The notes: generated by a model not told the origin, from the sequence alone. DNA of 64,000 nt from Verrucomicrobiota bacterium (GCA_027493615.1 JAOSKK010000001.1:175629-239628), one strand, 5' to 3'. Positions 1 through 64,000 are shown, counted from the first letter of the stretch. A program made the numbers and translations.

Positions 1-2170
1 GCCGATGTGTCGCCAGGCAAAACTCGTTGGCCGCCTCGAATTCCAAAGCCTTGCGCCACCATCTCTGCTCGTCAGAAGTGAGCTTGCGCCGAACAAGACC
101 CATGTCCTGGAACTTCTCCAGCAGCTTGTGGGTAATGTCGTTCAGGGCGAGACCGGCAGCGCCCGCAGCCTGCACCACTTGCTCGATGGCGTGGCGCACG
201 GCAAATTGCCGATGCCGGTCGCCCATGTAACCGGCCTGATGCGCCGCCTCCTGCCGGTTGTCGGCGAAGATCAACAGTTTCCGCTCCTTGGCGGGCAACT
301 TGTCCAGGTGGTGCGTCGCCAGCACCGAGTTGGACGACGCCGCGCCGGAGCGCAACAGCGTGAGGATGTCCCCTTTCGGATAGGTCGAATTGCAGACCGG
401 GCAAGTGTTGCCTCGACCGCGCATGACCTGCTGGACTGTCACCGTCGCTGCTGCCTTCCCGTCCGGCATCTCGTCATAGACCCTGCCCGTCTGATGGCAG
501 ACGAATTTCGGCATCAACTTCAGCCGGGACTTCGTGTGCGCCTGGCGCTTGCGCGGCTTCTTGTTCTCACCGTTCTCCTCGTCCTCCCCATCGTCGTCGT
601 CACCGGCCTGCTCAACGTGAACACACGGAGTGATAAAGCCCGTGTTCTCGTCGCTGATGAAATCGTCGTTGGGATAGGTCTTGGTTGGGTCGGCCTCGTC
701 GAATCGCACTTTGACGAAATCCTGGCCGCAGGTGCGGCACAGGGCGGCGGGCCGGACGGCACTGCCGCACTTCGGGCACGTCTCCGAACCGTCGCGCACG
801 AGCATCCGGCACGCGGGGTTCATGCAAAGGCCCACGTCATACACTCCCTGGAAGAACGTGTGCAGTTTCGGGCGCAAGCTGGGCGGGTCTTTCTCCGTCC
901 CCACTGACCCCACCAGCAGATATGCCTCGATCAGCGTTCGCAGCTCCAGATCGGTCAACGCCTTCGCCGTCTCAATCCCAGCCTTGACCGCTTGCACCAA
1001 CTCCGCCATCGAACGCGGCTCTCGACACTCGCGTTCCAGCAGGGCGACGAGTTGATTGCCTTCAAGCGCAGCACGAATCTTCTGCGGCATCGAGCCGGAC
1101 GAACCGAGCGATTGACCAGTTATCCTGGCGACCAGGTCCGACAGCTTGGCGTCGTCCTCGTGGTCAAAGGTCTGGATTTCCTCCGGCGCGAGCTTCACGA
1201 ACGGCGGCTGATACGTCCGGCTGGGCGGCGGCTTCACAACCAGCGTCTCGCCAATCACGTCTTCCCGCGAAAATGGTTCGCCATATAACGCGGACACGAA
1301 CTCCGCCAGGGCCTCGTCTCCACCGGCGTCTTTCGAGACCGTGGCCGACGTGCCAACGCACCGCAGCTTGCCCTCGCCCACACCCGCTCGCGCCTTGAGC
1401 CTGCGAATCAGGCAGGCAATTTCCGTTGCCAGTGCGCCACGATAACTGTGGATTTCGTCCAGAACCAAGAACCGCAGGCTCGGGCTGAACAGCGTGCGGT
1501 CCTCCTTCCGCACCAGCATGAACTCCAATTCCTTGTAGTTTGTGAGCAGGATGTCGGGCTGGTGCTGCCGGATGTCCGTGCGGCGGATGAACTCGTTGCC
1601 TTCCACCGGCTCGCCCAACGTCGCGGCCACGCTCTCGCTCTCCCCGGTGTACATCGCGAAGGTCACTCCCACGCCCGAATCCCGGATCAAGGTCCGAAGC
1701 CGTCCCAGTTGGTCATTCGCCAAGGCGTTCATCGGATACAACAGAATGGCCTTCGTCCCCTTCACGCCTTCCGCACGCATCCGCAACACGCCCGACATGA
1801 CGGCCAGCAGGAAGGCTTCGGTCTTGCCGCTGCCCGTCCCGGTTTTCACGATGACGTTGCGACCGAGTTGCTCCACGCGGCGGAGCGATTGCTCCTGATG
1901 CAGGAAAAGCCGCTGGTCGCCAAAGCTCCATTTGAGCCGCTGGAGGTCTTTGTGCCCGACGCCCTGTTCGTGAAGCTGTTTCAGCGTGTGCTCCCGGGCG
2001 AAATCGTTGGCCAGCGTCACGTACGGGCCTTTGACCAGCACGTCGGCCTGCTTGATGTGCGACTCGAACTGCTCGCGCAGGCGCGGATCGGCCAGCCGAT
2101 AGGTGCTCAGCAGGAAGCGCCGGTACTCGGCGACCAGATGGTTGACACTGCCGACGACGGAGAAGCTCAT
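1..2170 (-). CDS. SF2 DEAD/DEAH-box helicase with internal zinc ribbon, first ~723 codons only (the gene continues past the window start). DrmA-like member of the DISARM-type locus.
   Basis: It is absent from the ORF track because it has no stop in the window. Manual reverse translation from ATG (2170..2168) stays open to the window edge: MSFSVVGSVNHLVAEYRRFLLSTYRLADPRLREQFESHIKQADVLVKGPYVTLAN... Helicase motifs: I 'VKTGTGSGKTEAFLL', II 'LVLDEIHSYRG', III 'GTSAT', Cys-rich ribbon 'CMNPACRMLVRDGSETCPKCGSAVRPAALCRTCG', RecA2 'KLLIFADNRQEAAHQAGYM'. Its start overlaps the PIN gene stop (ATGA). Plus-strand ORFs 5..907 and 1448..2230 are antisense shadows of this gene. Confidence 0.8.
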   Translation of the reverse strand, partial: MSFSVVGSVNHLVAEYRRFLLSTYRLADPRLREQFESHIKQADVLVKGPYVTLANDFAREHTLKQLHEQGVGHKDLQRLKWSFGDQRLFLHQEQSLRRVEQLGRNVIVKTGTGSGKTEAFLLAVMSGVLRMRAEGVKGTKAILLYPMNALANDQLGRLRTLIRDSGVGVTFAMYTGESESVAATLGEPVEGNEFIRRTDIRQHQPDILLTNYKELEFMLVRKEDRTLFSPSLRFLVLDEIHSYRGALATEIACLIRRLKARAGVGEGKLRCVGTSATVSKDAGGDEALAEFVSALYGEPFSREDVIGETLVVKPPPSRTYQPPFVKLAPEEIQTFDHEDDAKLSDLVARITGQSLGSSGSMPQKIRAALEGNQLVALLERECREPRSMAELVQAVKAGIETAKALTDLELRTLIEAYLLVGSVGTEKDPPSLRPKLHTFFQGVYDVGLCMNPACRMLVRDGSETCPKCGSAVRPAALCRTCGQDFVKVRFDEADPTKTYPNDDFISDENTGFITPCVHVEQAGDDDDGEDEENGENKKPRKRQAHTKSRLKLMPKFVCHQTGRVYDEMPDGKAAATVTVQQVMRGRGNTCPVCNSTYPKGDILTLLRSGAASSNSVLATHHLDKLPAKERKLLIFADNRQEAAHQAGYMGDRHRQFAVRHAIEQVVQAAGAAGLALNDITHKLLEKFQDMGLVRRKLTSDEQRWWRKALEFEAANEFCLATHR

Positions 2171-2667
2171 TGTGTCCCTCCCATCAGGATGTCCGTCCGC
2201 AAGGCGCTCAGCCACTTCTCGGTGAAATGATTCTTGAACTGCGGCGAGATACCCACCGCCCGCGCCAGGGCCTCCAGGGAGACAAACCGCTCCAGGAATC
2301 CCAGTTCATTCCCGGCCCGCACCGCAGCCCGGTCGGATGCGCTCAAATACCATACGCCCGGCCTGGCGATGGCGTGGGCCAGCAGATGCTTTTCGCCCAT
2401 GTCAATACGGTCAGGCTCGGCGAGCCGGGTTTCGATTTCGGCCAGCTCCAGAAGGCTGACAGCGTGGACTGCGACCCCCTTCTTCATTTCCTCGACATCC
2501 ACCGCCACGTAATCGGCGCGGCGTCTATCGCCGGTCGCCGCCTCCTCGCTGCACTTCTCCACGGTTTCCACCTTGAAAAAGTTTTCCATCGCCCGCCAGC
2601 ACCGGACGCGATGCGCCTCGATGATGACGTTGGTGTCAACCAGAACGATGTCCCCTCTGGTAATCAT
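2167..2667 (-). CDS. PIN-domain protein (predicted nuclease)
   Basis: Intact 166-aa ORF. The N-terminal 'GDIVLVDTNVIIEAH' is the PIN strand-1 Asp plus a following Glu, and 'YLSASDRAAV' supplies a later acidic residue. It lies 12 nt downstream of the ImmA-like gene and overlaps the helicase start by 4 nt. Confidence 0.7.
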   Translation of the reverse strand: MITRGDIVLVDTNVIIEAHRVRCWRAMENFFKVETVEKCSEEAATGDRRRADYVAVDVEEMKKGVAVHAVSLLELAEIETRLAEPDRIDMGEKHLLAHAIARPGVWYLSASDRAAVRAGNELGFLERFVSLEALARAVGISPQFKNHFTEKWLSALRTDILMGGTQ

Positions 2668-2679
2668 GCGGTTTCCTCA

Positions 2680-3811
2680 TCACAAGTCGAACGGCACGCT
2701 GAACCCGTAGCTCTTGAACAGGTCTTCGAGGTCTTCCACGGTCATGTCCAGCAGTCCGGCAGCACGGCGCACCGAAAGCTCGCCGCGCTCCAACGCCCAA
2801 TGCAACCGTTCAACAAAACGACGAGAAAACAGCTTGGGGAGCGTCTGCTCCGAAGGGGAACGCCCGTTCCAGGTCAGGCGCTCTTTAACCATGTCGAGTG
2901 AAGCGGCCTGCGTCAGCCAGCCGAGCTGGCGCAGCCGCCAGTAAAGGGCCTCCGAGGTCACTTCAAAGTCGGAAGCCGTTGCGTTCAGCCAATCGTGGAG
3001 GTCTTGGTCGCCCCGCTTCTCCCAGCGTGGCTTCAAGCTCGCAGCGGGCATGAGCAGGGCTGCCGCGAAGTTGTTGGCCAACTGCTCGACGCGCTTGACC
3101 TTCGTCCCCTCGAACTTGTCCGCCGCGTCATAGGGCCGGGGCGGCATGGCGTTCCAGGTCAGGACGTGGAACGTCTCGTGGGCGAAGTCGTAGTTCCGCC
3201 GACCGTCCGGCTCGCGGCGGTTCACCAGGATCGTGTTGAACTGCGGAAGCTGGCAGGCCGCGCCCGAGATACCCACCGGCGCGTCCACGTACAACACGAG
3301 AATCTTCAGCCGATCCTCGACGACCTCTCGGAGCTTCTGCGCGGGGATGTCGCCCAACTGCCAGTCCGCCACGAGGGCTTCCCCCTGCCGCCTGCGCCTC
3401 CTCGAACGAGCTGCGCTCGGTGAGGTTCAACTGCTGCAACAGCGGGTTGTACGGCTCACCCTTGATTTCCCCGAGACGACGGTACGTGGCAATCCACCTG
3501 CCCGCCTTGGCCTCGAACTCGTCGAGCGACGCGGGCGCAGCCCCTACCGCCCGCCACGAGAACGCGCCTTCGCCGACCAGCGAGAAGGTGTCAGTGAAAT
3601 ACTCCAGCTTTTTCCCGAGCACCTGGATCAGCTTCACCAACTCCTCGGCGGTGAGCTTGCGCTTGCCCGCTTCAATGTTGGAAAGCGTTTGGCGGTCGTT
3701 GAAACCCAACTGGGAGGCCAGTTCGTCCTGACTCAGGCTGGCGTCTTCCCGAGCGAGTTTCACCCTCTGCCCGACGATCCGCTGAAACTGTTCCTGTGAG
3801 GTCTTGTTCAT
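2680..3811 (-). CDS. XRE-family HTH fused to an ImmA/IrrE (COG2856) zinc metallopeptidase, with the frame broken once
   Basis: ORF 3128..3811 begins with the HTH 'LSQDELASQLGFNDRQTLSNIEAGKRKLTAEELVKLIQVL'. ORF 2680..3372 carries the HExxH motif 'DFAHETFHVLTW' typical of ImmA/IrrE peptidases. The two frames meet at the C5 run 3381..3385 (...FEEAQAAG / EALVADWQLGDIP...). Restoring one base gives a single ~377-aa HTH-peptidase; as written they would be two adjacent genes. Confidence 0.8.
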
Positions 3812-3998
3812 TCGTTCGCCAAGAATCTACTCCGCCTATCGAGGAATGCAAGAATTATTTGCGGTTTAGGTTTTGCAATAATAGATCACATCGCGTTTCC
3901 TCATATAGTTGGTTTCCAAGTAGTTAGAAGCGAGACGCCCACTACCAAACCATTTGGACGCCGCGAATTGCTCCTTGCCAAGGCGTTCGGAAATGGGC
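3812..3998 (-). promoter_or_regulatory. AT-rich 187-bp spacer inside the defence locus: candidate promoter plus palindromic operator for the HTH-ImmA/PIN/helicase unit
   Basis: This is the only strongly AT-rich stretch in the first 11 kb. It lies directly upstream of the HTH gene start (3811). It contains the inverted repeat ATTATTTGC-N12-GCAATAAT at 3854..3882, and TTGCAT/TAGATT-like hexamers on the minus strand. No experimental support. Confidence 0.35.
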
Positions 3999-6900
3999 CT
4001 ACCAAGCCTGGCTGTCCAGCTTGGCGGTCAGGAACGCGAAGAACTCCGCGTGCTTCTTTGCGAAGACTGGGAACGAAGCCAAGACGTGCCGGAAGTCGTC
4101 CTGGGAAAGGCCGTACGCTTTGGCCACGGCCTTGTTCGCGATCCACAGACCTTCCCAATGCTCCTTGAGTTCGGTGATCCGCTCCACGCCGTGTTCCCAA
4201 GCGCAAACGACGGGAACACGCGGCAGGGCGTTGGTCACCGACGCAGGCGGCACGGGCATCGGGCGCATGTAGGTGAAGCTGATGTGCGTCCCGGCAGTAC
4301 GGAGGCGGAGAGCATAGTCGAAGCAGAAAGAGTTCAGTACTGTCTGGGCTGCCAGTGGATCGACTCCTCGAACGAGGACACCACACAATGTGTGGGAGGC
4401 AGCAGACCCGCGAGGAAGCATCACAGCAATGCAAGTCCTCTGGTTCGTGTTGCTCGCGGTTTCGCGGTACACGAGGACTTCCTCGTCGAGCGGTGGTCGC
4501 TCATGCTTTGCTACGGCGAGCGATTTCTTTAACCACCACCGGAACGGCTTGATCCCATAAATGAACTGCTCGATGTGCTTCCCCTCATAAACCGGGACAA
4601 AACCCTCCGCCGCCATAGCCGCTACAAGGTGGGTAGTATCGGTCGGCGGGTTCGTCAGTACATTCTTCGGGCTGAATAGGCTTCCGGTTGCTGGGTCTGT
4701 CCAGAGGTCTTTGTCTCGCGTCGCGTTGTAGGTGAACTTGTGCGCGAAGTCCGTGAACAGTTCAGCCCGCCAGCCCGCTGCGTCGTCGCTACCGAGCACG
4801 ACGGAGTGGCGATACATCTTGTGGACGATCTCCTGATCGCGAGGCCCGCGATACTCCAGCAGGGCGTAGCTTTCGGGCGAGAGTTTCGCAACCTCCTCCG
4901 CCGTGATGGTGACCATCTGGACGGACTCATCGCCCATCAACTCGCGCACGTCATGGCGCATGAAGATGGCGGGAAACCGCCTTTTGCTTGGCGTCTTTTT
5001 TCGACAGACGAAGCAGACGAACTTGTAGCTGGCGTGAATCGGGAAAATTTTCTGTCGGTTCTCAAATCCAAAAACCGATGCGATGCTGGCCTCCGTGACC
5101 AACCATTTTCTCAGCGTGGCGCAGCCGTCTCCGTTGTAGAACACTGAAGGCAACAACAGGCCGACGCTGCCGCCGTGCCGCACTACCTGAATCGAACGGT
5201 CGGCAAAATACTTGGAAAGGTCTTCGTGCGCGGCTTGGGTTCTCCCTTCGGAGAGTGGGAAATCGCCGCCGCCACGCAGCATCTGCATGGTGGTCTTGAC
5301 CCGATTCTCGTAAGCCTTGAACTCGCCCGCCAGCGCCGGATTCTTCTGGTGAAGCTCGCCGATGCGTTGATCGAGTTCGTTGCCGGACAAGGCGCGGATG
5401 AAGATGTCGTAACGACCATAGAACTCCTGCCGGTCGGGCAGCACCTTGTCCCACGGCGGATTTCCCACGATGACGTGAAATCCCTTGTGTTCACCGAAGA
5501 AGACTTCGGGGAACTCCAGTTGCCAGTGAAAGAACCGCTCGCGTTGGCGAGCTTCCTCGAATCTGTCCCACCACTTTTGCTTCTTGGCGTACCCTTCGAC
5601 ATCGTCGGTCGAGAGCAACGTGGCCCACGCGCCCCAGATTTCGGGCACAAACGCCGCCGCGCTCCGCAGATCGAACAGCAGCCGCGCCTGAGCCAGAAGT
5701 TCGTTTGAACGCTTCAGCCGGTCGGCTTTGTATTCGTACTCCTGGGGCGTGTCTTTGCGGATGTCGGGCGGCAACGGCTTATCAATGAGCAGGCGTTCGT
5801 CCAGCGCCTCGCGGATCAGCCGCTTGAACTGAATCTCGAACAAGCCGCCCTGATCCCGGCCCTTCTTGTCGTCGAGCGACGGATGGGGCGGTTGATGCAG
5901 CCGATCCAGCCATGTACCGAGGAGCGAGTTTCCAGGCCGGATGTGGTGTGCGAAAAAGCTCAGCGGACGATCCCCGGCCAGCGACTCGATCCAGAGCGCG
6001 ACCTGGGCGAGCTGCACGGCGGTCGGGTTCAAGTCCACGCCGAACAGGCATCGCTCGACAATCCGGCGCTTGCACCAGGCTTCGCCTTCGCTCTGCCAGC
6101 GTTGGCGGACTTCCGGCGTCAGCGGACGGTCGGGGGTAGAACTCGGGCGGCGGGTCGTCTTTGAACTCGCGGTGATAGGCGTCGAGAAGCTTGCGGCCCA
6201 TGTACCGGGCCGCGCCGACCAGGAAATGCGCCGAGCCGCAGGCCAGGTCAATGACCCGCAGCGACTCGATCTCCGCCGCTGATTTGTCCTCGACCAACCC
6301 CTCCAACGCCTTCCGCACGAGGTACTGGACGATTTCCTCTCGCGTGTAGAACGAGCCGCTGGACTTGCGGGCCGAGCCGGGAACGAAATAGAACTCGTCC
6401 TTCTCCAGTCGCCGGATCAGCCGGGCTGCCGCGCCCTTCTTGACACCTTTGTCTTCCTCCTCCTCGCCCTCGCTGCTTTCACCGTTCTCGTCTTCACCTT
6501 CATCCTCGTCCTCGGTGTCGGCGGCGTCTTCGTCCACCTCGACGTTATCGGGGTGGAGATTGGCGGCTTCGGTGTCCGCCACGAGGGCGGCATCGCCCTT
6601 GAGCGTGAGTTGCTTCTGCTCGCACAGCCGTTTCAATTCCGCAGGTGTAAGCACGAAACCGCGGCCCTGGACGACGACCTCGATCATCGTCTGGTCGGCG
6701 GTGCGCGGCTCGTATTCGAGCAGGCCCTCATAAACCGAGCCGAGCTGCTCGATCTCCAGTTCACGGTAGGACACCCGCTCGCGGCCCACGCCGCGCCGGG
6801 GCTTGGTCGTGGCCAGGGTCATCACCAGCTTTCCGGCGACGCGGTCGGACAGCTTCAGTTTGGCGATGAGCTGGCCTTCGGGCGTTTTGTCACTGAACAA

Positions 6901-7955
6901 CCGACCGCCCCGAGGCGGGATGTTCTCCAGATCGGGCGTCGGCGGCAGACCCTCGTCGTAGATGCGGAACAGGGCCTGGAGCGCCTGCCAAGTGCCGAAA
7001 CGATTGCCGGGGAGTTCCTCCTCGGGCACGCGCAAGAGCCGATCCACCAGTTGCTCCAGCGAGTAGGATTTTTGGTAGAGCCGATGCCGCTGCAACCGTT
7101 CGTCTCGGGCCTCGGCGTAGAGGATGAACAAGAGTCGGTAGAGTGTTTGCAGGGCGGTGTCGCGCAGTTGGCCGAGCGTGGGCTTGGGATTGAACGCTTC
7201 GGGCCTGCCTGCCGAAGCCCCGGCGCAGGCAGGGCGGGCCTGGATGTCTTCGAGGAATCCACGGATCAGGATTTCAGCGGCGCTGAAGACGGCAGCCTTC
7301 AAATCCTCCGACACCCGCGCACTGTGTTTCCGCGACTCGGCTTCCAGCAACTCGATGGGCCTGGGCGAGCCATCTGCCGCCACGAAGTTCTCCGCGTGCA
7401 GCACGCGATAGGCGGCGGTGAGGGAGTCAATGTCCTCGGTTTCGACGGCGCTGGCGATGGAGAAGTCGAAAGACGCCCCTTCGGGCCATCGCCCAAGCGC
7501 CGGATCAAGCGCAGCAGGCTCGGGGTGATGATGAAGCCGTAACTCAGGCCCTGGTCGGCCAGGAGACGCTCCAGCGTCCCTCGGGTCTGCCTGCTTTCGA
7601 TCTCGTCGTCGTCCGGGCAGAGGTAGAGCGCGGCAATCGGAGCAGTGGCCGCGCCCTGTGCAGCTTCCTCCGGTTGCCGCGTCAGCAGTCGAACACGGGT
7701 TTCTTCGGGATGCTCCTCGATGTTGAACCCGAGCACCTGGCCGAGCAGTGGCCGGGCGAACTGTTCACGGAAGCGCGTGAGGTCGGGATGCTCGAAGCCC
7801 TCGATCCGATTCCTGAGCTGGGTCAGACGCCAGAGCGTTTTCTCGGCCTGTGCCTTCGTCAACTTCGAGCCAACCCCCTTCTTGGCGCTCAGGATCGAGC
7901 CGAGCCAGTAGTCGGAGAAGAAGCCCCGGATGTTGCGGATCGAGTTAAGCGCCAT
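3999..7955 (-). CDS. Large (~1,320 aa) N6-adenine DNA methyltransferase of the Eco57I/type IIG-like family; DrmMI-like. Frame broken twice.
   Basis: Overlapping minus ORFs 7299..7979, 5782..7404 and 3999..6251 read as one protein if 1-nt indels at C4 7476..7479 (...LGDGPKG / ASFDFSIASAVE...) and G5 6132..6136 (...DDPPPEFY / DRPLTPEVRQRW...) are repaired. SAM motif I is 'VIDLACGSAHFLVGAARY' and catalytic motif IV is 'VIVGNPPWDK'. The start ATG at 7955 (MALNSIRNIRGFFSDYWLGS) overlaps the SNF2 gene end by 11 nt. I did not recognise any nuclease motif. Confidence 0.85.
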
Positions 7956-10900
7956 GCTTGCCCTCCGGTGGGAAAACAAAGAGGACGCCCAGCGGCTGCG
8001 GTGTCCCCGGTTTCACGCCTTGCTCGAATTTCGCGATCTCCTCCAGGCGGCGCTGGTGGAAGGTGTCCACCGACGCCCGCTTGGCTTTGAAGCCATAAAC
8101 CTCGCGCCGATCAAACAGCAACTGCCCCTGTTCCTCGACGGCCAGCGCCTGCTTTTCCTCCAGGTCAATCTCCGCCAGGCGGTCGGCGCGGTATCGCGCC
8201 GCGTCCTCACGAAGCACGGCGGCGAAGTCTTGCCGGGTGCGCGTTTCCTCTGCCGCCTTTTCCTCCAGCAATTTCATCGCGGCCTCGCCTGCCGCCGCCT
8301 GCAACTGCTTGAATCGCTCGCCAAACACCTTTTCGACTTCTGCCCAGGGCACTTCTCCTGGCGGGAAGGTGGTGTCGAGGGCGGCAATAACCTGATCCTG
8401 CGGGAGCGTTTTGCCAGAGGCATCAATGGCAACCGCAAGGAATTGCCCGTGGTCGTGATCGTCCTGCCGCAGGTAGGTGAACACGGCATACGGGCCTTCG
8501 TCCGCGAACGGGTGACGGCGCACTGCCAGACGGGCCGAGGAGGCGTTGGGATCGCGGGGCGAGGTCAACTGGCGGTGAGCATCCTGCGCCATCGCCTGAA
8601 AGAGCGGATGCAGCCGTGTGACGAACTCGACATCCCGCGCCGGGTATTGGATGGCGACGGTTCGACGGAACGTCAGGCATGGGTACGACTCCGCAACCTG
8701 CGGGCCTTGAAACTCCCGTGGTGTCCGCAGCGAAAACGTGCCGGGAATCTGGCCGGGTTTCAGGTGCGTGCGAAGCCGGGCGAGCATGAACCGCTCGAAC
8801 GACTCGTCATCCTGCATCACCTGGTCGGCAGACAGGCTATTGGGATCAATCTTCGCGCCGTAGCCGGGCCTGCCACTCATGAGCAATGGGGCAACTTCGC
8901 GCAGGAATGAATCGCGACCCTCGTCCAGCTTGCTGAAAATCCTGTCAGTTGCCGTCGTGGTGTCGCCTTCGGCGTCCAGTTCCGTCAACGCCTCCTCGAT
9001 GCGCTGGCCAGCCAGGATGCCAAGGATGTCCGGCGTGGAAACCTTGTCGGACTGCATCTGGACGATCCGTTTCACGAGGCGGTCGAGGACGTTGTCCTCC
9101 GGCGAATCGGGGTAGAACAGGTAGCGGATGATCGGATTCCGGGTCTGTCCGTGGCGATCCACGCGACCGTTGCGTTGTTCCATCCGGTTGGGATTCCAGC
9201 TCAGCTCGAAATGGTAAACACGGCGGCAGAATCGCTGGAGGTTCAACCCTTCGGACGCGGCGTCGGTCGCCAACAGCAGTTTTTTTCCTGGCTTCTCGAA
9301 ATCGGCCAATCGCCCCTGGCGTTTTTTCGAGGACAGCCCGCCTGTCAACTCAACGTAGCAGTCCTTGAACTCCGGGCGTGCGTCGAGGGCAGCCTTGATC
9401 GCGCCCAGCGTGTCCAGGTATTCGGTGAAGACGATCGCCTTTTCGTCGGGCTGCGAGAGGACATCGGCCTCCAGATCGGCGACGAGCGCCCCGATCTTGG
9501 GATCAGGCAGAGTCTTCACCTGGTCGATCAACTTCTTAATTTCCTGGAGTTGCTTCTTTTCGGCGCTGCGCCGCTTGGCGTCCTTCGACACCGTCGCCTT
9601 GACGATCCGGCTGGCGATGCGTTCGTGGGTCTTTTCGTTCAGCGGCAGGTCGCCCTGCAACTCGCGGACTTCGGATCGCGTGGGAGCTTCTTCCTGCTGC
9701 GTGCGGCTGGCCAGGGCCTCCAGGCGCTTTTCCACCGTGTTGGCCAGGGCCGTCCGGCTGGACAACATCCGCTTCTTGATGATCTGCATGGCGAACGACA
9801 CCAGCTCGGCGTCGTCGGTCTGCCGGGCGGCTGCGGTGGTCTTGGCGCAGTAGGAGGAGACCTTCTTGAAGATGGCCTTCTCCGCGTCCGCCAGCGCCGA
9901 CACGCTGATGGCCTTCACCGGTTCGCGAACCTTGAATGCGGGGATTCTGCTGCCGTCCGCCCCGGACTTGGAGATGTCGCCTTTCAGGCGGCGGATCATG
10001 CTGCGGCCCACGCGACGGGCGACCACGGTCTTGTCACCGGTGAAGCTGGCATCCGTGGGTTCGACGATTTCGAGTAGTGACCGGAAGCTGTGGCTGTAGC
10101 CGTTGTGCGGCGTCGCGGACAATAGAATCAACGACTTGGTGTGGTCGCGCAGCTTCGGGCCAAGTCGAGCGCGAGCGGTGAGGTAGGGCTGCGCGGCGTG
10201 CCGGATTCCGCCAGATAGTGTGCTTCGTCAACGACAATCACGTCCCAGCGCGGCTCAAGGGCGCTGGCCAGAACCTCCCTCTTTTTCAGGTACTCGATGG
10301 ATGTGATGACCCGGTTCAAGAAGACCCAGGGTTTGATCCCTCCGACAGACGGGTTTGTGCCCGTTCCAGGGCCGCTGCGTTTTCGATGGCCTCGAACTTG
10401 AGGCCGAATTTGGTCAGCATCTCCTCCTGCCACTGCGGGATCAGGCCGGGAGGGACGACCAGGAGGATGCGTTTCCCGCGCCCTCGGGCCAGCAGCTCCA
10501 GCAGGCAAATGCCCGCCTCAATGGTCTTGCCAAGGCCGACATCATCCGCGATCAGCAGGCTCGGGCGTGGGAGCTGGAGCATTCGGGCCACGGGCGCGAA
10601 CTGGTAATGCTCAGGCGAGATGCGCCCGCCGTAGAACGCGGCGAACTCGCCGGAGTCCACGCCGGACATCTTCAGGGCCAGGTTCGCCGACTGCCAGGTT
10701 TCAAACGGAGCAACCGCATGCCTGGCGAACACCGGCGACTCCTCCGGCAACGATTCGTAGATTTCGGGCGGGCACAGGGCTTCGAGCCGCTCGGCGCTGC
10801 TCGGGTCAAAAAGCCGGAAAAGGGTCTTGTTCTCGGCGACCTTCGTCGCCGTTTCCACCCGCCAAGCTTTGTCACGTAGAAGAATGCGTTGCATGGGCCG

Positions 10901-11359: not shown

Positions 11360-11504
11360 CCGCCTCGCCGTCGTGATCGTCGATGACCAGCCGGCGGGGG
11401 TGGGGGGAACCGTCCTGTCCCTGCCGGACCTGCTCGGTGACCATGAACCGCGGCGGGTGCAGGCTGGAAGCCCGCACCGCAGGTTCAGGGAGCGCCTCCC
11501 TCAG

Positions 11505-11583
11505 CCCAATCCCTGATGTTCGTCATCGGCGGAGAATCCAGGACGGGGCGTCCCTCCACCGATGACGAACCTCGGGGATTGGG
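11505..11583. repeat. 79-bp imperfect palindrome (29-bp arms, 21-nt loop) in the divergent intergenic region upstream of the SNF2 gene
   Basis: Left arm CCCAATCCCTGATGTTCGTCATCGGCGGA (11505..11533). The reverse complement of the right arm (11555..11583) is CCCAATCCCCGAGGTTCGTCATCGGTGGA, which matches 26 of 29 positions. The loop itself contains GGACG-GGG-CGTCC. Confidence 0.6.
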
Positions 11584-15054: not shown

Positions 15055-15153
15055 GCCGAGCCACCGCAAGGCCGAACCGTGGACAACTTCCATTCATGCT
15101 GCGCCGAGCCGCAAGCGGATTGCCCCTCACCCTGTTTGCACAGACGCCACCCC

Positions 15154-52993: not shown

Positions 52994-53042
52994 CCTTCCC
53001 CCGCTCACCCCCCGTCGCCTCCCCCTCAGCCGCCCCGCCCGC

Positions 53043-55109: not shown

Positions 55110-55418
55110 CCCAACACCCGCGCAGCGTCGCCTCCCGGACTTCAGAACGGTTCTGCTGTTTCATATAGCCAGCCTGCTGTCTTAACAAACTCAGCCCTTG
55201 GACGCGCCAGCCCCTCGTTTCTTCAGCCCCCGAAAAGCAAACGGCGGGGCGCAAGCGCCCCGCCGCCAAGACCGCGTGCTCCGCGGCCACCCCGTCAGTT
55301 CATCCAATGGCCAGCAGTCGCTACTTCCATCGCCCCCGCGCCAGCGACCGCACGTTCCTGCCCCCGCCCTACCCCGCGCAGCGGGGCCGCATCTTTTCGC
55401 GATGCAGGAGCGAAAAGA

Positions 55419-56593: not shown

Positions 56594-56911
56594 CTACGCA
56601 GCCGCCGCCGGCGTGGGCGCGCTGGCCGGCGCGTGGGAGAATTGGACCCGGAACACATCCGGACTCAGCGCAAATCGCGCACGCAACGTCTCGAGCGCCG
56701 TCGGCGGGGCCGCGAAGATGACGTTCACGTAGAACCCCGAGGTCACCTTCTTGTCCGCCGCGCGGGCAAACTGCCGTTTGTCCATCTTCTGCGTGGTCTC
56801 GATCCGGCCACCCTGCACGGCGATCTCCGCCGCGATCTTGTCCACCAGCGCCGGAACGCCTTCGTCCTTGCCCGCCGTGTTCAGAATAAACAGACCTTCG
56901 TAACGTTTCAC
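56594..56911 (-). CDS. rpsF: 30S ribosomal protein S6
   Basis: 'MKRYEGLFILNTAG...GGRIETTQKMDKRQFA...GFYVNVIF'. Its position directly upstream of ssb matches the usual operon order. Confidence 0.9.
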   Translation of the reverse strand: MKRYEGLFILNTAGKDEGVPALVDKIAAEIAVQGGRIETTQKMDKRQFARAADKKVTSGFYVNVIFAAPPTALETLRARFALSPDVFRVQFSHAPASAPTPAAAA

Positions 56912-57517
56912 TCTGCTTGCCTTTGTTCAGGGGGCGCCACGGCCCCGTTAAATCGGTTCATCGCCTGGCCCAGGCCGGCTTCGAGCCAGCACTCGACCGC
57001 TTCCACCGCCCGGTCCAGAACCCGGGCAAACCACTCGCTCTCCGCCGCCTCGAACGCCCCGAGCACATGGCCGATGATCTCCCGACCCGCTTCCCGCGCG
57101 CCGCCCAATCCCCAGCCGCATCCGGGCGTATGCGCGAGTGCCCAGGTGCTGCTCGACCGATTGCAGCCCCCGGTGCCCGCCGCTGCTCCCGTCGGGCCGC
57201 AGCCGCAGTGTGCCCAGCGGCAGGTCGGCGTCGTCCACCACCACCAGCAACCCGCTCGCCGGCAGCCGATGGTACCGGAGCACCGCGCCCACCGACTCAC
57301 CGCTGATGTTCATGAAGGTTTGCGGCTGACACAACCAGCACACCCTCGCCCCGAACCTGGCCTGGGCCAGTCGCGCTTGAAAGCGCCGTTCCACCCGCCA
57401 CGCCGCGTTCCATCGCTCGGCCAACCGGTCCGTCAGCATGAACCCTGCATTATGCCGCGTCCGCGCGTATTCCGCACCCGGGTTTCCCAATCCCACGATG
57501 AGCGCTGCATCCTGCAC
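56908..57517 (-). CDS. pth: Peptidyl-tRNA hydrolase; frame broken once
   Basis: 'LIVGLGNPGAEYARTRHNAGF', 'PQTFMNISGESV', 'LLVVVDDADLPLGTLRLRPDGSSGGHRGLQS'. The C-terminal part 'GREIIGHVLGAFEAAESEWF...' lies in the frame of ORF 56908..57300, with the join near 57100. Confidence 0.9.
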
Positions 57518-57574: not shown

Positions 57575-58317
57575 CTATTTCTTCTCCGGCTTCTCGGCCT
57601 TCTCCGGCTTTTCCACCTTCTTTTCGGCCTTTTCGGCCTTCTCGCCCTTGGCCGGAGCGGTCTCGGTCCCCTCTTCCTTCTTCTCGGTCAGGACCTCGGG
57701 CTCGGCAGCGCCCGCCTCGGCGGCTGCGGCCTCGGCCGCCTTCTCTTCCTCCTCCGTCACCGGCGCGGCGACCGCGACGACGGAAATGTGTTTGTCGCCG
57801 AGGATCTCGGTGCCCGGCGGGGGGGTGATGTCCCCGATGTGAATTGCCTGACCGATCTCGGAGGTGGGACACGTCCAGGCGGATGACTTCCGGCAGTTCT
57901 TTGGGCAGGGCCCGCACCTTGAGCTTGAAGAGAATCAGCTCGAGAATGCCCCCGCCTTGACCCCGGCTGACTCGCCGGTCGTTTCCACCGGCACGGTGAT
58001 CACCACCCGCTCGTCTTCCGCCACCTCATGGAAGTCCACGTGCAGGATGTCCCCCGCAACGGGTGATGCTGGATCTCCTGCACCAGGGCCAGTCGCTTGT
58101 CGGCCCTTCGCCTTCGACGGTCAGGTCCACCAGGATGTTCTCCGACGCCGACTGGTGCACCAGCTTCTCCAGTTCCTCGAGCCGGAGTTCCAGACTCTGC
58201 GGGGCACGCCGGCGGCCATAGATCACCGCTGGCACCCGCTCGTGGGTCCGCAGCTTCTTCACGGCGGACCGGCGCCGGGCCGTCCGCGGGAAACACAGTC
58301 AAAGGCAACGATTTCAT
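57575..58317 (-). CDS. rplY: 50S ribosomal protein L25 / general stress protein Ctc with an acidic-lysine tail; frame broken about 5 times
   Basis: The reconstructed reading across three frames is MKSLPLTVFP / RTARRRSAVKKLRTHERVPAVIYGRRRAPQSLELRLEELEKLVHQSASENILVDLTVEGEG / KRLALVQEIQHHPLRG / DILHVDFHEVAEDERVVITVPVETTGESAGVKAGG / ILELILFKLKVRALPKELPEVIRLDVSHL / EIGQAIHIGDITPPPGTEILGDKHISVVAVAAPVTEEEEK... The ATG is at 58317. The conserved prs-rplY-pth gene order supports the call. Confidence 0.8.
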
Positions 58318-58350: not shown

Positions 58351-59295
58351 TCATTCCGGCCGCCCACCTTTGAACTCGAAGAGCGAAGTGACCGACGAAT
58401 TCGTGTGAATTCGCTTGATCGCTTCGCCCAACAACCCCGCCACCGACAGCGTCGTCAGGTTCACACCGCGGATCGCAGGGCGGGCAACGCTATCAGTGGT
58501 GATCAGTTCGTCAATATTCGATTTGCGCAGCCGGTCCAGCCCCATGTCCGACAGCACCGCGTGGGACACCGCCGCCAGCACCCGCTTCGCCCCCCGCCGC
58601 TTGAGCAGCTTCGCCGCCGAGGTCAGCGTCCCGGCCGTCTCCGTCAGGTCGTCCACCATCAACACGTTGCGCCCCCGCACCTCGCCGATCACCGTGTCGT
58701 GCTCGACTTCCGTCGCGCTCTTGCGCCGCTTGGCCACGATGGCCAACCCCGCCGCCAGGACCTGCGCATAGGCATGGGCCATCTTCAACCCGCCCACGTC
58801 CGGGCTCACCACCACCAGATCCGCCAAGTCCTTCTGCTTCAGATAGTCGAACATCACGGGCGCCGCGTACAGGTGATCCACCGGGATGTCGAAGAAGCCC
58901 TGAATCTGCTGGGCGTGCAGATCCATCGTCAACACCCGGTTCGCGCCCGCCGCCACCAGCAGGTTTGCCACCAGCTTCGCCGTGATCGGCACCCGTGGCT
59001 GGTCCTTGCGATCCTGCCGCGCGTACCCGTAAAACGGCAGCACCGCCGTGATCCGCTTGGCGCTCGCCCGCCGCAGGGCATCAATCATGATGAACAGCTC
59101 CATCAGATGATGGTTCGTCGGCGGGCTCGTGGACTGCACCACAAACGTGTCCTCCCCCGCACGTTCTCATCAATCTTCACGAACGTTTCGCTGTCCGGGA
59201 ACTGGCTCACCGTGCACTTGCCCAGGGGCATGCCGATGGCCTGGCAAATGGCTTCCCGCCAAAGGACGGTTCGAGGTGCCGCTGAAAACTTTCAC
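58351..59295 (-). CDS. prs: Ribose-phosphate pyrophosphokinase; frame broken twice near the 5' end
   Basis: GTG 59295 'VKVFSGTSNRPLA / EAICQAIGMPLGKCTVSQFPDSETFVKIDENVRG / EDTFVVQSTSPPTNHHLMELFIMIDALRRASAKRITAVLPFYGYARQDRK...'. The PRPP loop is 'VVVSPDVGG' plus 'VLMVDDLTETAGTL'. One of the indels is at the C5 run 59154..59158. Confidence 0.9.
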
Positions 59296-59495: not shown

Positions 59496-59569
59496 GCGGG
59501 TGTGGTTCAATGGTAGAATGCGGGCTTCCCAAGCCTGAGGCGAGGGTTCGATTCCCTTCACCCGCTCCA
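59496..59569 (+). tRNA. tRNA-Gly (anticodon CCC), with CCA encoded
   Basis: GCGGGTGTGGTTCAATGGTAGAATGCGGGCTTCCCAAGCCTGAGGCGAGGGTTCGATTCCCTTCACCCGCTCCA. The acceptor stem is GCGGGTG/CACCCGC and the anticodon stem is CGGGC/GCCTG with loop TTCCCAA. The T-loop is GGTTCGATTCC. The layout is the same as classical bacterial tRNA-Gly(CCC). Confidence 0.9.
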
Positions 59570-60217: not shown

Positions 60218-61776
60218 TTGTCTACGAAGAAGCGATCGACCTTGTGCTTCAGCAGGACTCGGTTGACACCCGGCGGCTCTCGCGCTCTGGGGCGCACGCA
60301 CTTTGAAGCTGAATTGAACACACCCTGGACAACGGTCGCCGGGCGGAGGTGGATCCCCGTCCTGGTTCTGGTCTCGCTGCTGTCTCCCCTTGGCGGGTGG
60401 GCCACCGCCGAGGAGATCACCGTGGACTTCTCCCGAACCCACGGCCTGTTCCGGCCCCTGCACGGCCTCAATCAGGGTCCCCTCTGCTATCGCGGCACGG
60501 TCGACCTTACCGCCTGGCATCGCGAGTTGGGTCCGCCGTTGACCCGCCTGCACGACGTCGTCTGGGTCCACGCGGACGCCGTGGATATCAGCACGATCTT
60601 CCGCGATTTCCGCGACGACCCGGCCGGGCCGGACAACTACGACTTCGCCACGACGGACGATTACGTGGCCGCCGTGGTGCGTGCCGGATCCCCGATCCTG
60701 TATCGCCTGGGAGAAAGCATCGAGCACACCCCGAGGAAGTATCGCGTGCACCCCCGCCGATGCGGCCCGGTGGGCGGAGGTCTGTTGCCAGATCATCCGG
60801 CATTACAACGAGGGGTGGGCCGACGGTTTCCGGCACCAGATCCGGTACTGGGAGATCTGGAACGAACCCGAGAATCAGCCGGCCATGTGGACCGGCACCG
60901 ACGAGCAGTTCTTCGAGCTCTATGAAATCACCGCCCGGGCCATCAAGAACCGCTGGCCCGACCTGAGGATCGGGGGCCCTTCCCTCGGGCACACCGGGAC
61001 CTTTCGTGGCCGGTCCGTTTCAGCCGGGCGAGTTCCTCTTGCGCTTCCTCCGTCGTTGCCGCGACCGGGGGCTGCCGCTGGATTTCTTCTCCTGGCATCG
61101 CTACGCCGACGATCCTGCCGACTTCGCCCGTTGCGCGCAGGCCGTGCGGCAGTTGCTCGACGCGCACGGGTTTTCCCGGACCGAAAGCCACCTCAACGAG
61201 TGGAACTACCTGCCCCGGAGAGGATTGGCGCCCATGATGCCCGAAGGCCAGGGACCCATTCGCGAGGCCTGGAGCGCCGAACTGCGCGGACCGAAGGGAG
61301 CCGCCTTTGTGGTCTGGACGCTGCTCTCGCTGCAGGATGCCCCTGTCGACATGGCCAACTTCTACGCGGCCGACATCCAGGCGTTCGGCCTGTTCAACTT
61401 CCACGGCGTGCCGCAGAAGACCTTCTTCGCCTTCCGGACGTTCCGCGCCCTGCTCGACACGCCACGACGCGTCCAGACCCCACCGTGCATCGCCGGCGGG
61501 GTCGCCGTCGGGGCTGGCTTGGATGGCTCTGGAACCCGCGCCGCGGTGCTCCTGAGCAACTTCCACACGACCCTCGGGCTGCCGGATCTGACGCTCCGGC
61601 GGCTCCCCTGGAGCGGACCCACCGCCTTCGAGGTGTGCATCGTGGATGCGACCGGCAACGGCGAGGTCGCGCGGGCGGGGATCCTGGGACCCGAACTCCG
61701 CCTGGCGCTGTCCGAACACCGCGGTCCCGCGGTGGCCTTTGTGAAGCTCCGCCCGGCACCGCCGTCCCCTCCTTGA
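60218..61776 (+). CDS. Secreted clan GH-A glycoside hydrolase (GH39-like TIM barrel); frame broken twice
   Basis: The signal is 'RRWIPVLVLVSLLSPLGGWATA' (the start is ambiguous between TTG 60218 and TTG ~60314). The catalytic acid/base motif is 'IRYWEIWNEPEN'. 'LDFFSWHRY' and 'ESHLNEWNY' are also present. ORFs 60218..60925, 60681..61973 and 61006..61776 join near 60760 and 61010. Confidence 0.7.
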
Positions 61777-61833: not shown

Positions 61834-61964
61834 GTAGGCGCCGACGTGAGGAGGCGCCGGGTCCGGGGCAACGCCACATCGCCTCCTTACGTCGGCACCT
61901 ACTACGATTTCGCCTCCTTACGTCGGCGCCCACTGCGATGTCGCCTCCTCACGTCGGCGGCTAC
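61834..61964. repeat. REP-like element with one left arm and three tandem right arms (site E)
   Basis: The left arm is GTAGGCGCCGACGTGAGGAGGCG (61834..61856). The right arms are CGCCTCCTTACGTCGGCACCTAC (61880..61902), CGCCTCCTTACGTCGGCGCCCAC (61911..61933) and CGCCTCCTCACGTCGGCGGCTAC (61942..61964). The period is 31 nt. Confidence 0.85.
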
Positions 61965-62056
61965 GGGCGGTAAAGAAGATCCGAATCACCCCTTGAACCT
62001 GTGAACCACCCCTTCGCTCGAATCTCCGTTCCCCTGGCGGCACCCGGGTTCGCCCG

Positions 62057-63952
62057 GTGGCCGGCCTGGTGATGCTTGCCTGGTGCCAGGCTGCGTTCCC
62101 GGCCGGGGGAGGTCGCGGCCGACGCCCAACTCGAGCCGCTGCCGCTCGCCCGGGTGGAGCTCCGCGATTCCTTCTGGATGCCCAAACACCGCGTCTATCG
62201 GGAGCGGACGATTCCGCACTCGTGGTTTTACCTGCAATGGGAACTGCGCGCCCTGCGTCGGGCGGCCGGTCAGCCGGTCGAGGGCGAACTGAACGGCACG
62301 TGGGGCGAGGCGAACCTGTACAAGTTCCTCGAGACCGCCGCCTATGCCCTGGCACAGGAGCGAGATCCGGTCCTGGAACGTCGGATCGACGAGGTCATCG
62401 CGCTGCTGGCCGCCGGACAACAACCGGACGGCTACCTCCACGTTTACGTCACGAACAACGGCAAGATCCCGTGGGACCCGGACTTCCTGGACGGTTCCCA
62501 CGACGGCTATGTGCTCGGCCATCTTATCGAGGCCGCGATCGAGTATCACGCCGCCACCGGCAACCGCGCGCTGCTCGACGTCGCCTGCAAGGCGGCCGAT
62601 CAGGCCTGGCGACATTTCCTCGGCCCAGGTGGCCGACCGGGATTCTGCGGGCATGCCGAGCTCGAGATGGCGCTGGTTGAGCTTTACCGCGTGACCCGCG
62701 AACCGCGCTACCTCGAGCTGTCCCGCGCTCTTGTCGGATGGCGCGGTCGAGGCAAGGTGAAGCCCTTCAGCGACACCCCCCGCGCCTACTTCCAGGACGC
62801 CGTCCCTCTCCGCGCCCAGCGCACGCTCGAGGGCCACGCGGTCCGCGCCCTCTTCTTTGCCACCGGTGTGGCCGATCTGGCGCGGGAGACGGGCGACGGC
62901 GATTACCGCCTGGCCGCCCATCGTTTCTGGGACAGCACGACCTTGCGTCGGATGACGGTCACCGGCAGCGTGGGGCCCCGCCGGGAACACGAGGCCTTCG
63001 GTGAGGATTACGAACTGCCCCACGACGGCTATTACGAGTCCTGTGCCGCCTGCGGACTTGTGGACTTCGCGCACCGCATGTTCCTGCTGGAACGTCGGGC
63101 CGACAGCGCCGATGTCCTCGAGCGTGTGCTCTACAACGCGGTGCTCCACGGCATCTCGCTCGGTGGCACCAACACCTACTACTGCAATCCTCTGCGCGAT
63201 CGCGATCACCTGCGGGACAACTGCTGGGTCTGCTGTCCCCCGAACCTCTCCCGCACACTGCTGCAGGTCGGCCGGTACGCGTACGCCCGCGGGCACACCG
63301 GCGCCCGACCCGACCTCTATGTGAACCTGTTCGTGGGCGGGAGCGTCCAGGTGCCTTTCCCCGCCGGCGAAGTGACCGTTCGGGTCGAGACCGACTATCC
63401 GTGGGACGAGCGGGTGACCTTCCGTGTGGCCACACCCGCGCCGGTCGCGTTCGCGCTGCACGTCCGGAAACCCGGCTGGTGCGAGCAGGCCCGGCTCGAA
63501 CTGAACAGCGCCCCGCAGGACACACTCCCGGACGACGCCGGCTACTGGTGTTTCGATCGGACCTGGAAGGACGGCGACTCGCTGCAACTGCGCCTGGCCA
63601 TGCCGGTGGTCCGGCTGGTGGCCCATCCGAACATCGCCGCCTGCCGGGGCCAGGTTGCGCTCCAGCGCGGCCCCTGGTCTACGGCGTTGAAGGACTCGAC
63701 AACGACGGCCACCCGGCCGTGACGCTGGGACCCGATCCGGCGTTCACGGTCGAGCACCAACCGGAACTGCTGGGTGGAGTCTCGGTGATTCGTGGGGTGG
63801 CGGCCGACGGCCGGTCCATTCTCGCGATCCCGTTCTACGCGCTCGCAAACCGCGAGCCATCGGCCCAGGAAGTGTGGGTGGAACAGGCGGGACTGAAATC
63901 CAGCGATGCCTGGTGGCTCGGGGCCCTCTACCGGCCCATCGGGCCGCCGTGA
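62057..63952 (+). CDS. Glycoside hydrolase family 127 (DUF1680; beta-L-arabinofuranosidase-like); frame broken twice
   Basis: 'GHLIEAAIEYH', 'GHAELEMALVELYRVT', 'LEGHAVRALFF', 'YYESCAACGLVDF' and 'NCWVCCPPNLSRT' are GH127/DUF1680 hallmarks. The signal peptide 'VAGLVMLAWCQAAFPAG' (GTG 62057) joins at G5 62105..62109. The C-terminal part (ORF 63401..63952) joins at C4 63671..63674 (...ALQRGP / LVYGVEGLDNDG...). The minus ORF 61986..63626 is an antisense shadow. Confidence 0.9.
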
Positions 63953-64000
63953 TCCGCGCTCTCGGCTGCCTTTTGCGGGACCCAGGCCGAGGCGTGCCTG

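Follow-up and report, generated by a model that had tools for sequence, protein, structure and literature searches.

Frame-disrupting indels in 64 kb of a metagenome-assembled Verrucomicrobiota genome are very probably uncorrected base-calling errors

Nanopore consensus sequences are known to retain homopolymer indels, which lead to frameshifted gene calls (Sereika et al. 2022, PMC9262707). Errors of homopolymer length have been described as their largest error class after methylation motifs, at a consensus quality of ~Q22-Q29 (Wick et al. 2019, PMC6591954), and a passage in the Polypolish paper (PMC8812927) states that long-read-only bacterial assemblies usually keep them. The 64,000-nucleotide stretch of a Verrucomicrobiota bacterium analysed here (hereafter the window) resembles unpolished Nanopore R9-type assemblies and MAGs (PMC9262707, PMC6591954, PMC8812927; Kastor, PMC12007338) in its mostly 1-base homopolymer indels, an error rate that climbs steeply from run length 4-6, a consensus of ~Q30, fragmented gene calls, truncated deposited proteins and the success of short-read repair. 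It is unlike them in having 40% insertions in short runs (1-4 bases) and several fixed-context events. Flow-based 454/Ion Torrent sequencing likewise produces run-length miscalls that become frameshifts, but a MAG contig of 1.03 Mb is beyond the reach of these platforms. Reductive genome evolution, as in Mycobacterium leprae and recent host-restricted symbionts, leaves many genes interrupted by frameshifts; the window also contains many frameshifted genes, but its breaks are absent from the same population, lack accompanying substitutions or stop codons, and hit core genes (pth, prs and those of ribosomal proteins). In Neisseria, Haemophilus and Helicobacter, phase-variable poly-G/C contingency loci are found among restriction-modification and surface genes. 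As in those loci, the length of a G/C tract sets the frame in the window and some of the breaks lie in methyltransferase or helicase genes of defence, whereas the window tracts are short (3-6 bases), lie across all gene classes and in intergenic DNA, and are invariant among 4-6 runs.

The window was compared with Logan contigs, which derive from four or more public runs (SRR11288142, SRR31125242/44/45) and whose same-population sequence covers 49,327 of its 64,000 bases (11573-18233 and 21335-64000). Over these 49,327 bases, the comparison with accurate data of the same organism that the sequence-only reading had proposed as a check, the two versions were identical except for 42 small indels and 8 substituted positions. 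All covering contigs (1-5 per site) agreed with each other and against the window at each of the 42 indels, the window's state being supported by no covering Logan contig (4-6 independent runs); no variation in tract length was seen among the 4-6 runs wherever they gave cover, the island at 1-11572 lying outside it. Every gene that was tested is unbroken in these other assemblies of the organism; the breaks are therefore assembly errors and not pseudogenes, as the sequence-only reading had proposed: the broken genes almost certainly reflect uncorrected base-calling errors in the MAG consensus, the genes being intact where independent data exist. A second strain (SRR11182809 and SRR25844861; contig L087), with 5 SNPs, showed the short-read state at 57093, the single indel site that it covers. 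A literature search by the six run accessions found no paper. The remaining 14.7 kb (1-11572 and 18234-21334) were assessed through homology only, using a relative with 87% nucleotide identity and protein homologues at 40-54%.

We take the Logan contigs to be accurate, given their mutual agreement, their intact reading frames and the overlaps of ~30 bases at most contig ends, which presumably fit de Bruijn-graph assembly. The reverse reading, that the window is correct and the errors lie in the Logan contigs, has a negligible probability: contigs from at least four runs were concordant at every indel site, and it is the Logan version, not the window, that gives full-length frames fitting family profiles and distant homologues. 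Reading-frame integrity and homologue alignments thus rule it out.

Individual events are collected in Table 1. All 16 junctions named by the sequence-only reading are indeed G/C runs of 3-5 bases, and all 16 were supported as frame junctions, 11 of them being reproduced to the base by independent same-population contigs. Its break counts per gene also agree with ours, with four breaks inside metH and one just past the stop, five in rplY, two in prs and one each in pth, cysN and cysI. Other parts of that reading require revision. Its '30 or more' single-base disruptions are too few, the total being ~48 (42 verified and 6 probable, of which ~41 disrupt a coding frame), and some span 2-3 bases; deletions do predominate (25/42), but insertions are more than the 'few' supposed (17/42, 40%); and in the verified part 11 of the 20 genes of at least 300 aa are broken (~55%), well short of 'almost every' long gene.

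Table 1. Indels and substitutions in the window. Events are written as Logan contig state>window state. Rows at 3381-10340 and 20756-20763 are drawn from homologues, with the probable event. The last column gives the support for junctions named by the sequence-only reading.
Position	Gene or region	Event	Evidence	Listed junction
3381-3385	HTH/Peptidase_M78 (RmrA-like) regulator	C5 run, probable 1-base insertion	L099	relative
6132-6136	DrmMI-like Eco57I-type methyltransferase	G5 run, probable 1-base insertion	L099	relative
7476-7479	DrmMI-like methyltransferase	C4 run, probable 1-base deletion	switch 7476-7497, 1-base gap 7476	relative
10186-10188	DrmD-like SNF2 helicase	G3 run, probable 1-base deletion	~10 intact 973-995-aa homologues switch at 10179-10188	relative
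10338-10340	DrmD-like helicase	C3 run (relative: 4), probable 1-base deletion	switch 10328-10340, 1-base gap 10337
11876-11878	S8 peptidase	1-base deletion, T4>T3	L102
11915	S8 peptidase	1-base deletion, C lost	L102
11921-11925	S8 peptidase	1-base deletion, C6>C5	L102
15068-15069	intergenic	insertion, A>AA	short-read contig
15236-15239	213-aa PEP-CTERM-type gene	1-base deletion, CTCCC>C4 (T lost)		to the base
17322-17323	fused MFS/spermidine synthase (521 aa intact)	insertion, G>GG; N-terminus truncated
17492-17496	intergenic	deletion, C6>C5
17646-17648	DUF4149 gene	insertion, T2>T3
20756-20763	~740-aa gene	A4C4, probable 1-base deletion	8/9 remote homologues, frame 2 to frame 1 at 20755-20764	remote homologues (20760-20763)
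23379-23383	SNF2 helicase	3-base in-frame deletion, C8>C5	3/3 contigs
25137-25139	SNF2 helicase	insertion, G2>G3		to the base
25429-25433	SNF2 helicase	insertion, C4>C5		to the base
26718-26722	DUF7670 gene	insertion, G4>G5
27391-27394	Peptidase_M23 gene (469 aa intact)	deletion, C5>C4
30340-30342	Aminotran_5 gene (383 aa intact)	deletion, C4>C3		to the base
31861-31865	GH172 gene	insertion, C4>C5	3/3 contigs
32648-32651	GH172 gene	2-base deletion, G6>G4	4/4 contigs	to the base
39068-39072	metH	deletion, C6>C5		to the base
41089-41095	metH	2-base deletion, GC lost beside G6 run	3/3 contigs
41366-41370	metH	deletion, C6>C5	3/3 contigs
41836	metH	deletion, TT>T	3/3 contigs
41963-41967	just past metH stop, 3' end of convergent 236-aa gene	insertion, G4>G5	3/3 contigs
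47801		substitution filling interrupted run, CCCCACCC>C8	4/4 contigs
51240-51244	cysI	deletion, G6>G5	4/4 contigs	to the base
53008-53013	between cysD and cysN	deletion, C7>C6	3/3 contigs
53634	cysN	substitution filling interrupted run, CCACCC>C6	5/5 contigs
53872-53875	cysN	insertion, G3>G4	5/5 contigs	to the base
55134-55136	DUF4476 gene, 5' end	insertion, C2>C3	5/5 contigs
55227-55231	intergenic	2-base deletion, C7>C5	5/5 contigs
57093-57095	pth	insertion, C2>C3	5/5 contigs incl. divergent strain L087
57860-57861	rplY/ctc	insertion	4/4 contigs
57949-57953	rplY/ctc	deletion, C6>C5	4/4 contigs
58051-58055	rplY/ctc	deletion, C6>C5	4/4 contigs
58104-58106	rplY/ctc	deletion, C4>C3	4/4 contigs
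58288-58290	rplY/ctc	insertion	4/4 contigs
59154-59158	prs	deletion, C6>C5		to the base
59255-59257	prs, N-terminal part	insertion, C2>C3
60751-60755	GH39 gene (451 aa intact)	deletion, C7>C5	2/2 contigs
61002-61004	GH39 gene	insertion, T2>T3	2/2 contigs
61217-61218	GH39 gene	insertion, G>GG	2/2 contigs
61231-61233	GH39 gene	deletion, C4>C3	2/2 contigs
61857-61858	intergenic CCCGGG site	deletion, C3>CC
62035-62036		two adjacent substitutions at C6 run, CCCCCCGCGG>CCCCTGGCGG	2/2 contigs
62056-62057	intergenic CCCGGG site	deletion, G3>GG
62105-62109	near GH127 gene start	insertion, G4>G5		to the base
63671-63674	GH127 gene	deletion, C5>C4		to the base

Genes called on the Logan contigs were full length and carried the Pfam domains to be expected, the intact products including RplY (247 aa), Pth (176 aa), Prs, CysN (439 aa), CysI (568 aa), the GH172 (678 aa) and GH127 (626 aa) proteins and others. 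Applying the short-read version to the window returned one stop-free segment for each of the split genes. The sequence-only reading had expected such repair to restore full-length alignments, and this is what happened with MetH: against four relatives, the raw window aligned in four pieces in alternating frames and the repaired protein in a single piece over residues ~20-1300. A MetH search of genome contigs gave a best relative at 77% identity, with no near-identical reference. A 256-aa open reading frame proved to belong to the broken GH39 gene, of which it is one piece. The WaaA protein had an exact match in the look-up with an ATG start and none with a GTG start; the 678-aa beta-helix protein had no exact match because of the substitution at 47801. 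No Pfam or NCBIfam family was found for the gene at 19.2-21.3 kb, whose homologues came from a representative search. A Viterbi frame-switch model based on codon usage found most of the real breaks; its further flags (2175-2181, 7945-7956, 28976, 37198, 46388, 52066-52072, 52989-52991, 56910-56934 and 60970-61002) fell at gene boundaries or in non-coding DNA, with no indel in contigs or homologues.

G/C runs were miscalled more often the longer they truly are. The proportion of G/C runs miscalled, for true lengths of 1 to 8, was 0.03%, 0.09%, 0.2%, 2.2%, 2.0%, 30%, 60% and 1/1, and runs of at least four G or C, comprising 4.4% of the bases, held 23 of the 42 events (binomial P ~1e-20). This enrichment bears out the earlier description of mostly short G/C homopolymers, with the qualification that some errors lie outside homopolymers: 36 events are in G/C, and 11915, 15237 and 41090 are among the few that are other than pure run-length changes. 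Long runs lost bases (true lengths of 6-8 appearing as 5 or 6) and short ones gained them (1 to 2, 2 to 3, 4 to 5); five events were 2- or 3-base deletions, and four of the eight substituted positions were at homopolymers. Overall there were ~0.85 indels per kb (~1 per 1.2 kb), or ~Q30. Certain contexts recurred, with GCGGAA read as GCGGGAA three times, CGATCTCGA as CGATCTCGGA twice and CCCGGG sites affected five times; this repeated hitting of the same local contexts suggests a systematic, signal-dependent error, and these fixed-context events may be methylation-linked miscalls rather than pure run-length errors. Most errors are miscounted run lengths in G/C homopolymers, a few substitutions merge interrupted runs, and any genic indel whose length three does not divide splits its gene into overlapping reading frames. 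A contig of megabase size with an error profile of this form suggests a long-read assembly, most likely of the Oxford Nanopore R9 generation, left unpolished by accurate reads.

Run-length dependence alone cannot tell error from mutation, because slippage in a mismatch-repair-deficient cell also favours homopolymers and rises with run length. It is nevertheless very unlikely that the indels are real, the outcome of massive recent pseudogenisation by homopolymer slippage in a lineage that is, for example, host-restricted and clonal or a hypermutator deficient in mismatch repair. The Logan runs may come from samples other than that of the MAG, but 4-6 independent runs, including a diverged strain, were never in the window's state, and a decaying or mutator lineage should have gained transitions and nonsense mutations, whereas we found 42 indels against 8 substitutions in 49 kb. 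No decay marks beyond the indels were seen in the fragments, which are otherwise 100% identical to the intact versions, and identity to relatives was similar on either side of the breaks. Neither were indels depleted in coding sequence among the 42 verified events: 35 break coding frames, pth, prs, rplY, metH, cysI and cysN being hit, and six are intergenic, by estimate roughly in proportion to the intergenic sequence. rplY alone (744 bp) carries five uncompensated indels (net -1) and zero substitutions. As rplY is dispensable in E. coli, it makes a weaker argument from essentiality than pth or prs. The repeated hits in identical local contexts also stand against mutation.

It is scarcely credible that the cell decodes its way around the breaks, whether by programmed ribosomal frameshifting, by slippage of transcription at the runs or by some other non-standard decoding. 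Transcriptional slippage does usually occur at homopolymers, and each fragment retains its family motifs, but in the same population the DNA of these genes is free of frameshifts, so that nothing needs decoding. No orthologue shares the break sites, all orthologues being in one frame, and no known recoding system resembles a set of ~40 sites within 64 kb that shift the frame in either direction (+1 or -1), some of them at runs of only 2-3 bases.

The defence island (1-11572) was compared with an intact syntenic island from another metagenome (L099, 87% nucleotide identity), against which the junctions at 3381-3385, 6132-6136, 7476-7479 and 10186-10188 are frame switches. Residues 1-141 of the 367-aa regulator homologue match one frame (3811-3386) and residues 143-367 another (3381-2683), and the 1320-aa methyltransferase switches frame between 6079 and 6146, with a 1-base gap at 6136 in the nucleotide alignment. 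The break at 10338-10340 is absent from the earlier list. The defence genes are probably intact in vivo, as the sequence-only reading had concluded, to judge from the 87%-identical relative. The five island breaks and that at 20760 are probably errors of the same kind as the verified ones, as homologue alignments suggest. A mixed case, in which nearly all breaks are errors but at least one of those at 3385, 6136, 7476, 10186 and 10338 is genuine, through an inactivated defence system or phase variation at short G/C tracts, is improbable. Phase variation and pseudogenisation are common in defence and restriction-modification genes, the island is the only affected part without a same-population contig, and no 100%-identical intact helicase was found among the cluster members, the closest versions being 92-95% identical. 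On the other side, the five sites are short G/C runs of the type seen in the verified errors, their density fits the measured rate (~10 expected in 11.5 kb against five seen), contingency tracts are typically longer than the 3-5 bases found here, and the fragments have no additional substitutions or stops relative to the relatives. If a break were genuine, the strain would have a switched-off or phase-variable DISARM-like methyltransferase/helicase pair.

Base-calling errors, by far the likeliest source of the breaks, have already reached the protein databases, as the sequence-only reading had foreseen in predicting a fragmented automated annotation. MCZ7634752.1, MCZ7634755.1 and MCZ7634793.1, all from one 1,031,748-bp contig of the deposited GenBank MAG that matches the window, are truncated or altered: the first has 728 aa against about 973-985, and the last (GH127) 548 against 626. 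In the S8 peptidase the triple deletion regains the frame and garbles the signal peptide, which reads FVLFVACLAVALPSGLARPP in the Logan protein (P0241) and FVLSLPAWPWRCRPDCTAP in the window and MCZ7634755.1, the annotated start of which lies downstream of the garbled stretch. Such damage is overlooked by frame analysis alone, as is the in-frame loss at 23379-23383.

Extrapolated to the 1.03-Mb contig, the indel rate amounts to several hundred events, and analyses of pseudogene load, gene content, completeness of defence systems or protein length in this MAG would be misled; the public short-read runs could serve to polish the assembly. As artefacts, the breaks are of low biological interest in themselves, the organism having ordinary, intact genes for functions in translation, sulfate assimilation and the nucleotide and methionine pathways.

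We detected about 25–30 same-strand frame switches with no gene boundary between them when a codon-usage frame model was applied to the window (G+C 62–69%), and profile scans showed gene families broken over neighbouring frames. The cysN profile stops at base 53873 after positions 1–262 and resumes (263–406) at 53875 in a different frame, positions 1–52 of the prs profile are missing from the prs fragment, rplY is matched at 10–70 and 152–234 only, the SNF2 domain was found in three pieces, and MetH of relatives aligned to the raw window in four pieces with alternating frames. All 16 junctions listed by the sequence-only reading, which had ascribed such disruptions to sequence error, are G/C runs of 3–5 bases. 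The sequence of the deposited GenBank MAG ("Verrucomicrobia bacterium") is identical to the window, and a contig scan with the window MetH found its closest matches in Verrucomicrobiota MAGs, at no more than 77% identity.

Gene content of the window, with gene identities from family profile scans
Feature	Position	Strand	Detail
Defence island	1–11.4 kb	minus	DruE-like helicase, HTH/Peptidase_M78 regulator, Eco57I/DrmMI-like methyltransferase, DrmD-like SNF2 helicase
S8 peptidase, fused MFS/spermidine synthase, DUF1559 pilin-like protein, WaaA, second SNF2 helicase			family scan
Aminotran_5, 2-hydroxyacid dehydrogenase, GH172, metH, mtnA			family scan
cysI-cysH-cysD-cysN			family scan
rplI-ssb-rpsF-pth-rplY-prs			family scan
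GH39, GH127			family scan
tRNA-Gly (anticodon CCC)	59496–59569	+	between prs and GH39 gene

Logan contigs (assemblies of public sequencing runs), retrieved by exact-sequence look-up of intact window proteins, cover 11573–18233 and 21335–64000, i.e. 49,327 bases (runs SRR11288142 and SRR31125242/44/45, with SRR11182809 and SRR25844861 for a second strain). Over these bases they differ from the window by 42 indel events and eight substituted positions and are otherwise identical (overall divergence 0.10%, ~Q30). The contigs covering each indel are unanimous, and 11 of the 16 junctions noted beforehand are matched to the base. Encoded at full length in these contigs are RplY (247 aa), Pth (176 aa), Prs, CysN (439 aa), CysI (568 aa), CysD (300 aa), GH172 (678 aa), Aminotran_5 (383 aa), Peptidase_M23 (469 aa), MFS/spermidine synthase (521 aa), GH39 (451 aa) and GH127 (626 aa). 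That the errors sit in the short-read contigs and not in the window is excluded, as the contigs agree with one another and their reading frames are intact.

In rpsF (56594–56831), contigs L087 and L088 (SRR11182809, SRR25844861) differ by five SNPs from the window and from the remaining runs, which indicates a second, closely related strain in those samples; the short-read state at indel site 57093 is also present in this diverged strain. Four unanimous single-base differences, at 43504, 57363, 59897 and 61817, lie outside homopolymer merging, and two of these change G/C to A/T (one at GCCGCG, one at CCCGGG); all four may be additional base-calling errors or else genuine SNPs between strains. 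One end of each of the short-read contigs L084 and L103 lies within the tRNA-Gly gene.

The disruptions are absent from the organism and are therefore errors of the deposited consensus, as the earlier reading had proposed; the intact independent contigs and the effect of repair both support this. Several results contradict both genuine gene decay and a hypermutator lineage: the disruptions are missing in 4–6 independent runs, come without accompanying substitutions or stop codons and are not depleted in coding sequence, and rplY alone would combine five uncompensated indels with zero substitutions. As an argument from essentiality, rplY carries less weight than pth or prs. Recoding or slippage in vivo would have nothing to decode, the population DNA being already in frame. 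The earlier estimate of about 30 events was too low, since 48 were found, six of them placed by homology, and ~55 would be expected over 64 kb at the measured rate.

The 42 events comprise 25 window deletions and 17 window insertions, so that insertions, thought to be few, make up 40%; G or C is involved in 36. Deletions occur mainly in long runs (true 6 read as 5, n = 9; 7 as 5 or 6, n = 3; 8 as 5, n = 1) and insertions in short ones (1 to 2, 2 to 3, 4 to 5). Miscalls of G/C runs of true length 1 to 8 numbered 4/15197, 5/5877, 3/1414, 8/357, 2/100, 9/30, 3/5 and 1/1, respectively. G/C runs of at least 4 account for 4.4% of bases but for 23 of the 42 events (P ~1e-20). Multi-base and non-homopolymer errors also occur: five events are 2- or 3-base deletions and three (11915, 15237, 41090) are something other than a simple change in run length. 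Of the eight substituted positions, four alter a run by filling or disturbing it (47801, 53634, 62035–62036). Some contexts recur, namely GCGGAA read as GCGGGAA (n = 3 among 63 such sites; 57093–57095, 58288–58290, 59255–59257), CGATCTCGA read as CGATCTCGGA (n = 2; 17322–17323, 57860–57861) and CCCGGG (45 sites), with four indels and one substitution (27391–27394, 39068–39072, 57363, 61857–61858, 62056–62057). These contexts, whose counts are small, may be places where methylated DNA motifs interfered with base-calling.

A coding frame is broken by 35 of the 42 events, six lie between genes and one removes 3 bases in frame. In the verified part 19 of 37 genes are affected, and 11 of the 20 of at least 300 aa, fewer than the "almost every" long gene initially described; WaaA, 2-hydroxyacid dehydrogenase, DUF900, GFO/IDH/MocA oxidoreductase, HpnA-like epimerase, AAA_14, MtnA, the beta-helix protein and CysD are unbroken. 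The counts per gene agree with those first made (metH four, plus one just past the stop; rplY five; prs two; pth, cysN and cysI one each), and the GH39 gene contains four. When the short-read version was applied to the window, every split gene became one stop-free segment, and MetH of four relatives then aligned in one piece and one frame (~residues 20–1300), the predicted effect of repair. Frame-neutral errors escape a frame-based approach. At 23379–23383, in the SNF2 helicase, a run of 8 was called as 5, an in-frame loss of 3 bases to which any frame-based check is blind; at 11876–11925, in the S8 peptidase, three 1-base deletions within 46 bases regain the frame and turn the true signal peptide FVLFVACLAVALPSGLARPP into nonsense. 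The deposited S8 peptidase MCZ7634755.1 starts downstream because of this garbled signal peptide and carries even the window's aberrant N-terminal sequence. Damage to the annotation had been foreseen, and MCZ7634793.1 (GH127, 548 aa) and MCZ7634752.1 (helicase, 728 aa) are indeed the window's truncated frames.

No same-population contigs cover the defence island or the gene at 19.2–21.3 kb, and homology was used there. The island, a predicted mixed DISARM/Druantia-like gene set, further holds a 165-aa protein; its DruE-like member is a giant DEAD/MZB helicase and its regulator is RmrA-like. L099 (JGI metagenome contig Ga0116249_10002827, 1–13339) has the window's gene order at ~87% nucleotide identity, with intact genes of 973, 1320, 367, 165 and 1727 aa and a 301-aa gene that the window lacks. 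Against L099, frame changes fall at 10328–10340 and 10179–10188 in the DrmD-like helicase, at 7476–7497 and 6079–6146 in the methyltransferase and at 3381–3386 in the HTH/M78 regulator, each accompanied by a gap of one base at a G/C run, and about ten more intact helicase homologues place the same two switches in the window. For the gene at 19.2–21.3 kb, eight of nine remote homologues align first in frame 2 and then in frame 1, with the change at 20755–20764. The five island sites and the 20760 site are thus probably errors too, and it is very unlikely that some of the five island breaks are genuine.

Two database homologues resemble the window: P0373 (648 aa) keeps to its frame across the 20760 junction and P0535 (730 aa) shows the same N-terminal truncation as its helicase. 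Similar errors may be present at these runs in other public assemblies. A single stop-free frame (18119–20959) passes through the DUF1559 pilin-like gene and what looks like a spacer into the beginning of a ~740-aa gene, whose signal peptide is near 19050. Between 18233 and 19100, a stretch without independent cover, one more error may have removed the stop codon of the DUF1559 gene.

The assembly was probably built from error-prone long reads, most likely of the Oxford Nanopore R9 generation, with no accurate-read polishing, because a megabase MAG contig (1,031,748 bp) is combined with length-dependent run compression and expansion, a ~Q30 consensus and repeated contexts. In Nanopore consensus sequences homopolymer indels lead to frameshifted gene calls (PMC9262707); in one study only methylation motifs gave a larger class of error than homopolymer length, at Q22–Q29 (PMC6591954), and a further paper reports that the errors usually left in long-read-only assemblies are of this homopolymer-length kind (PMC8812927). 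The split genes are an artefact and no biological feature of this bacterium; their biological interest is low, and their practical use is as a quality flag for a public genome.
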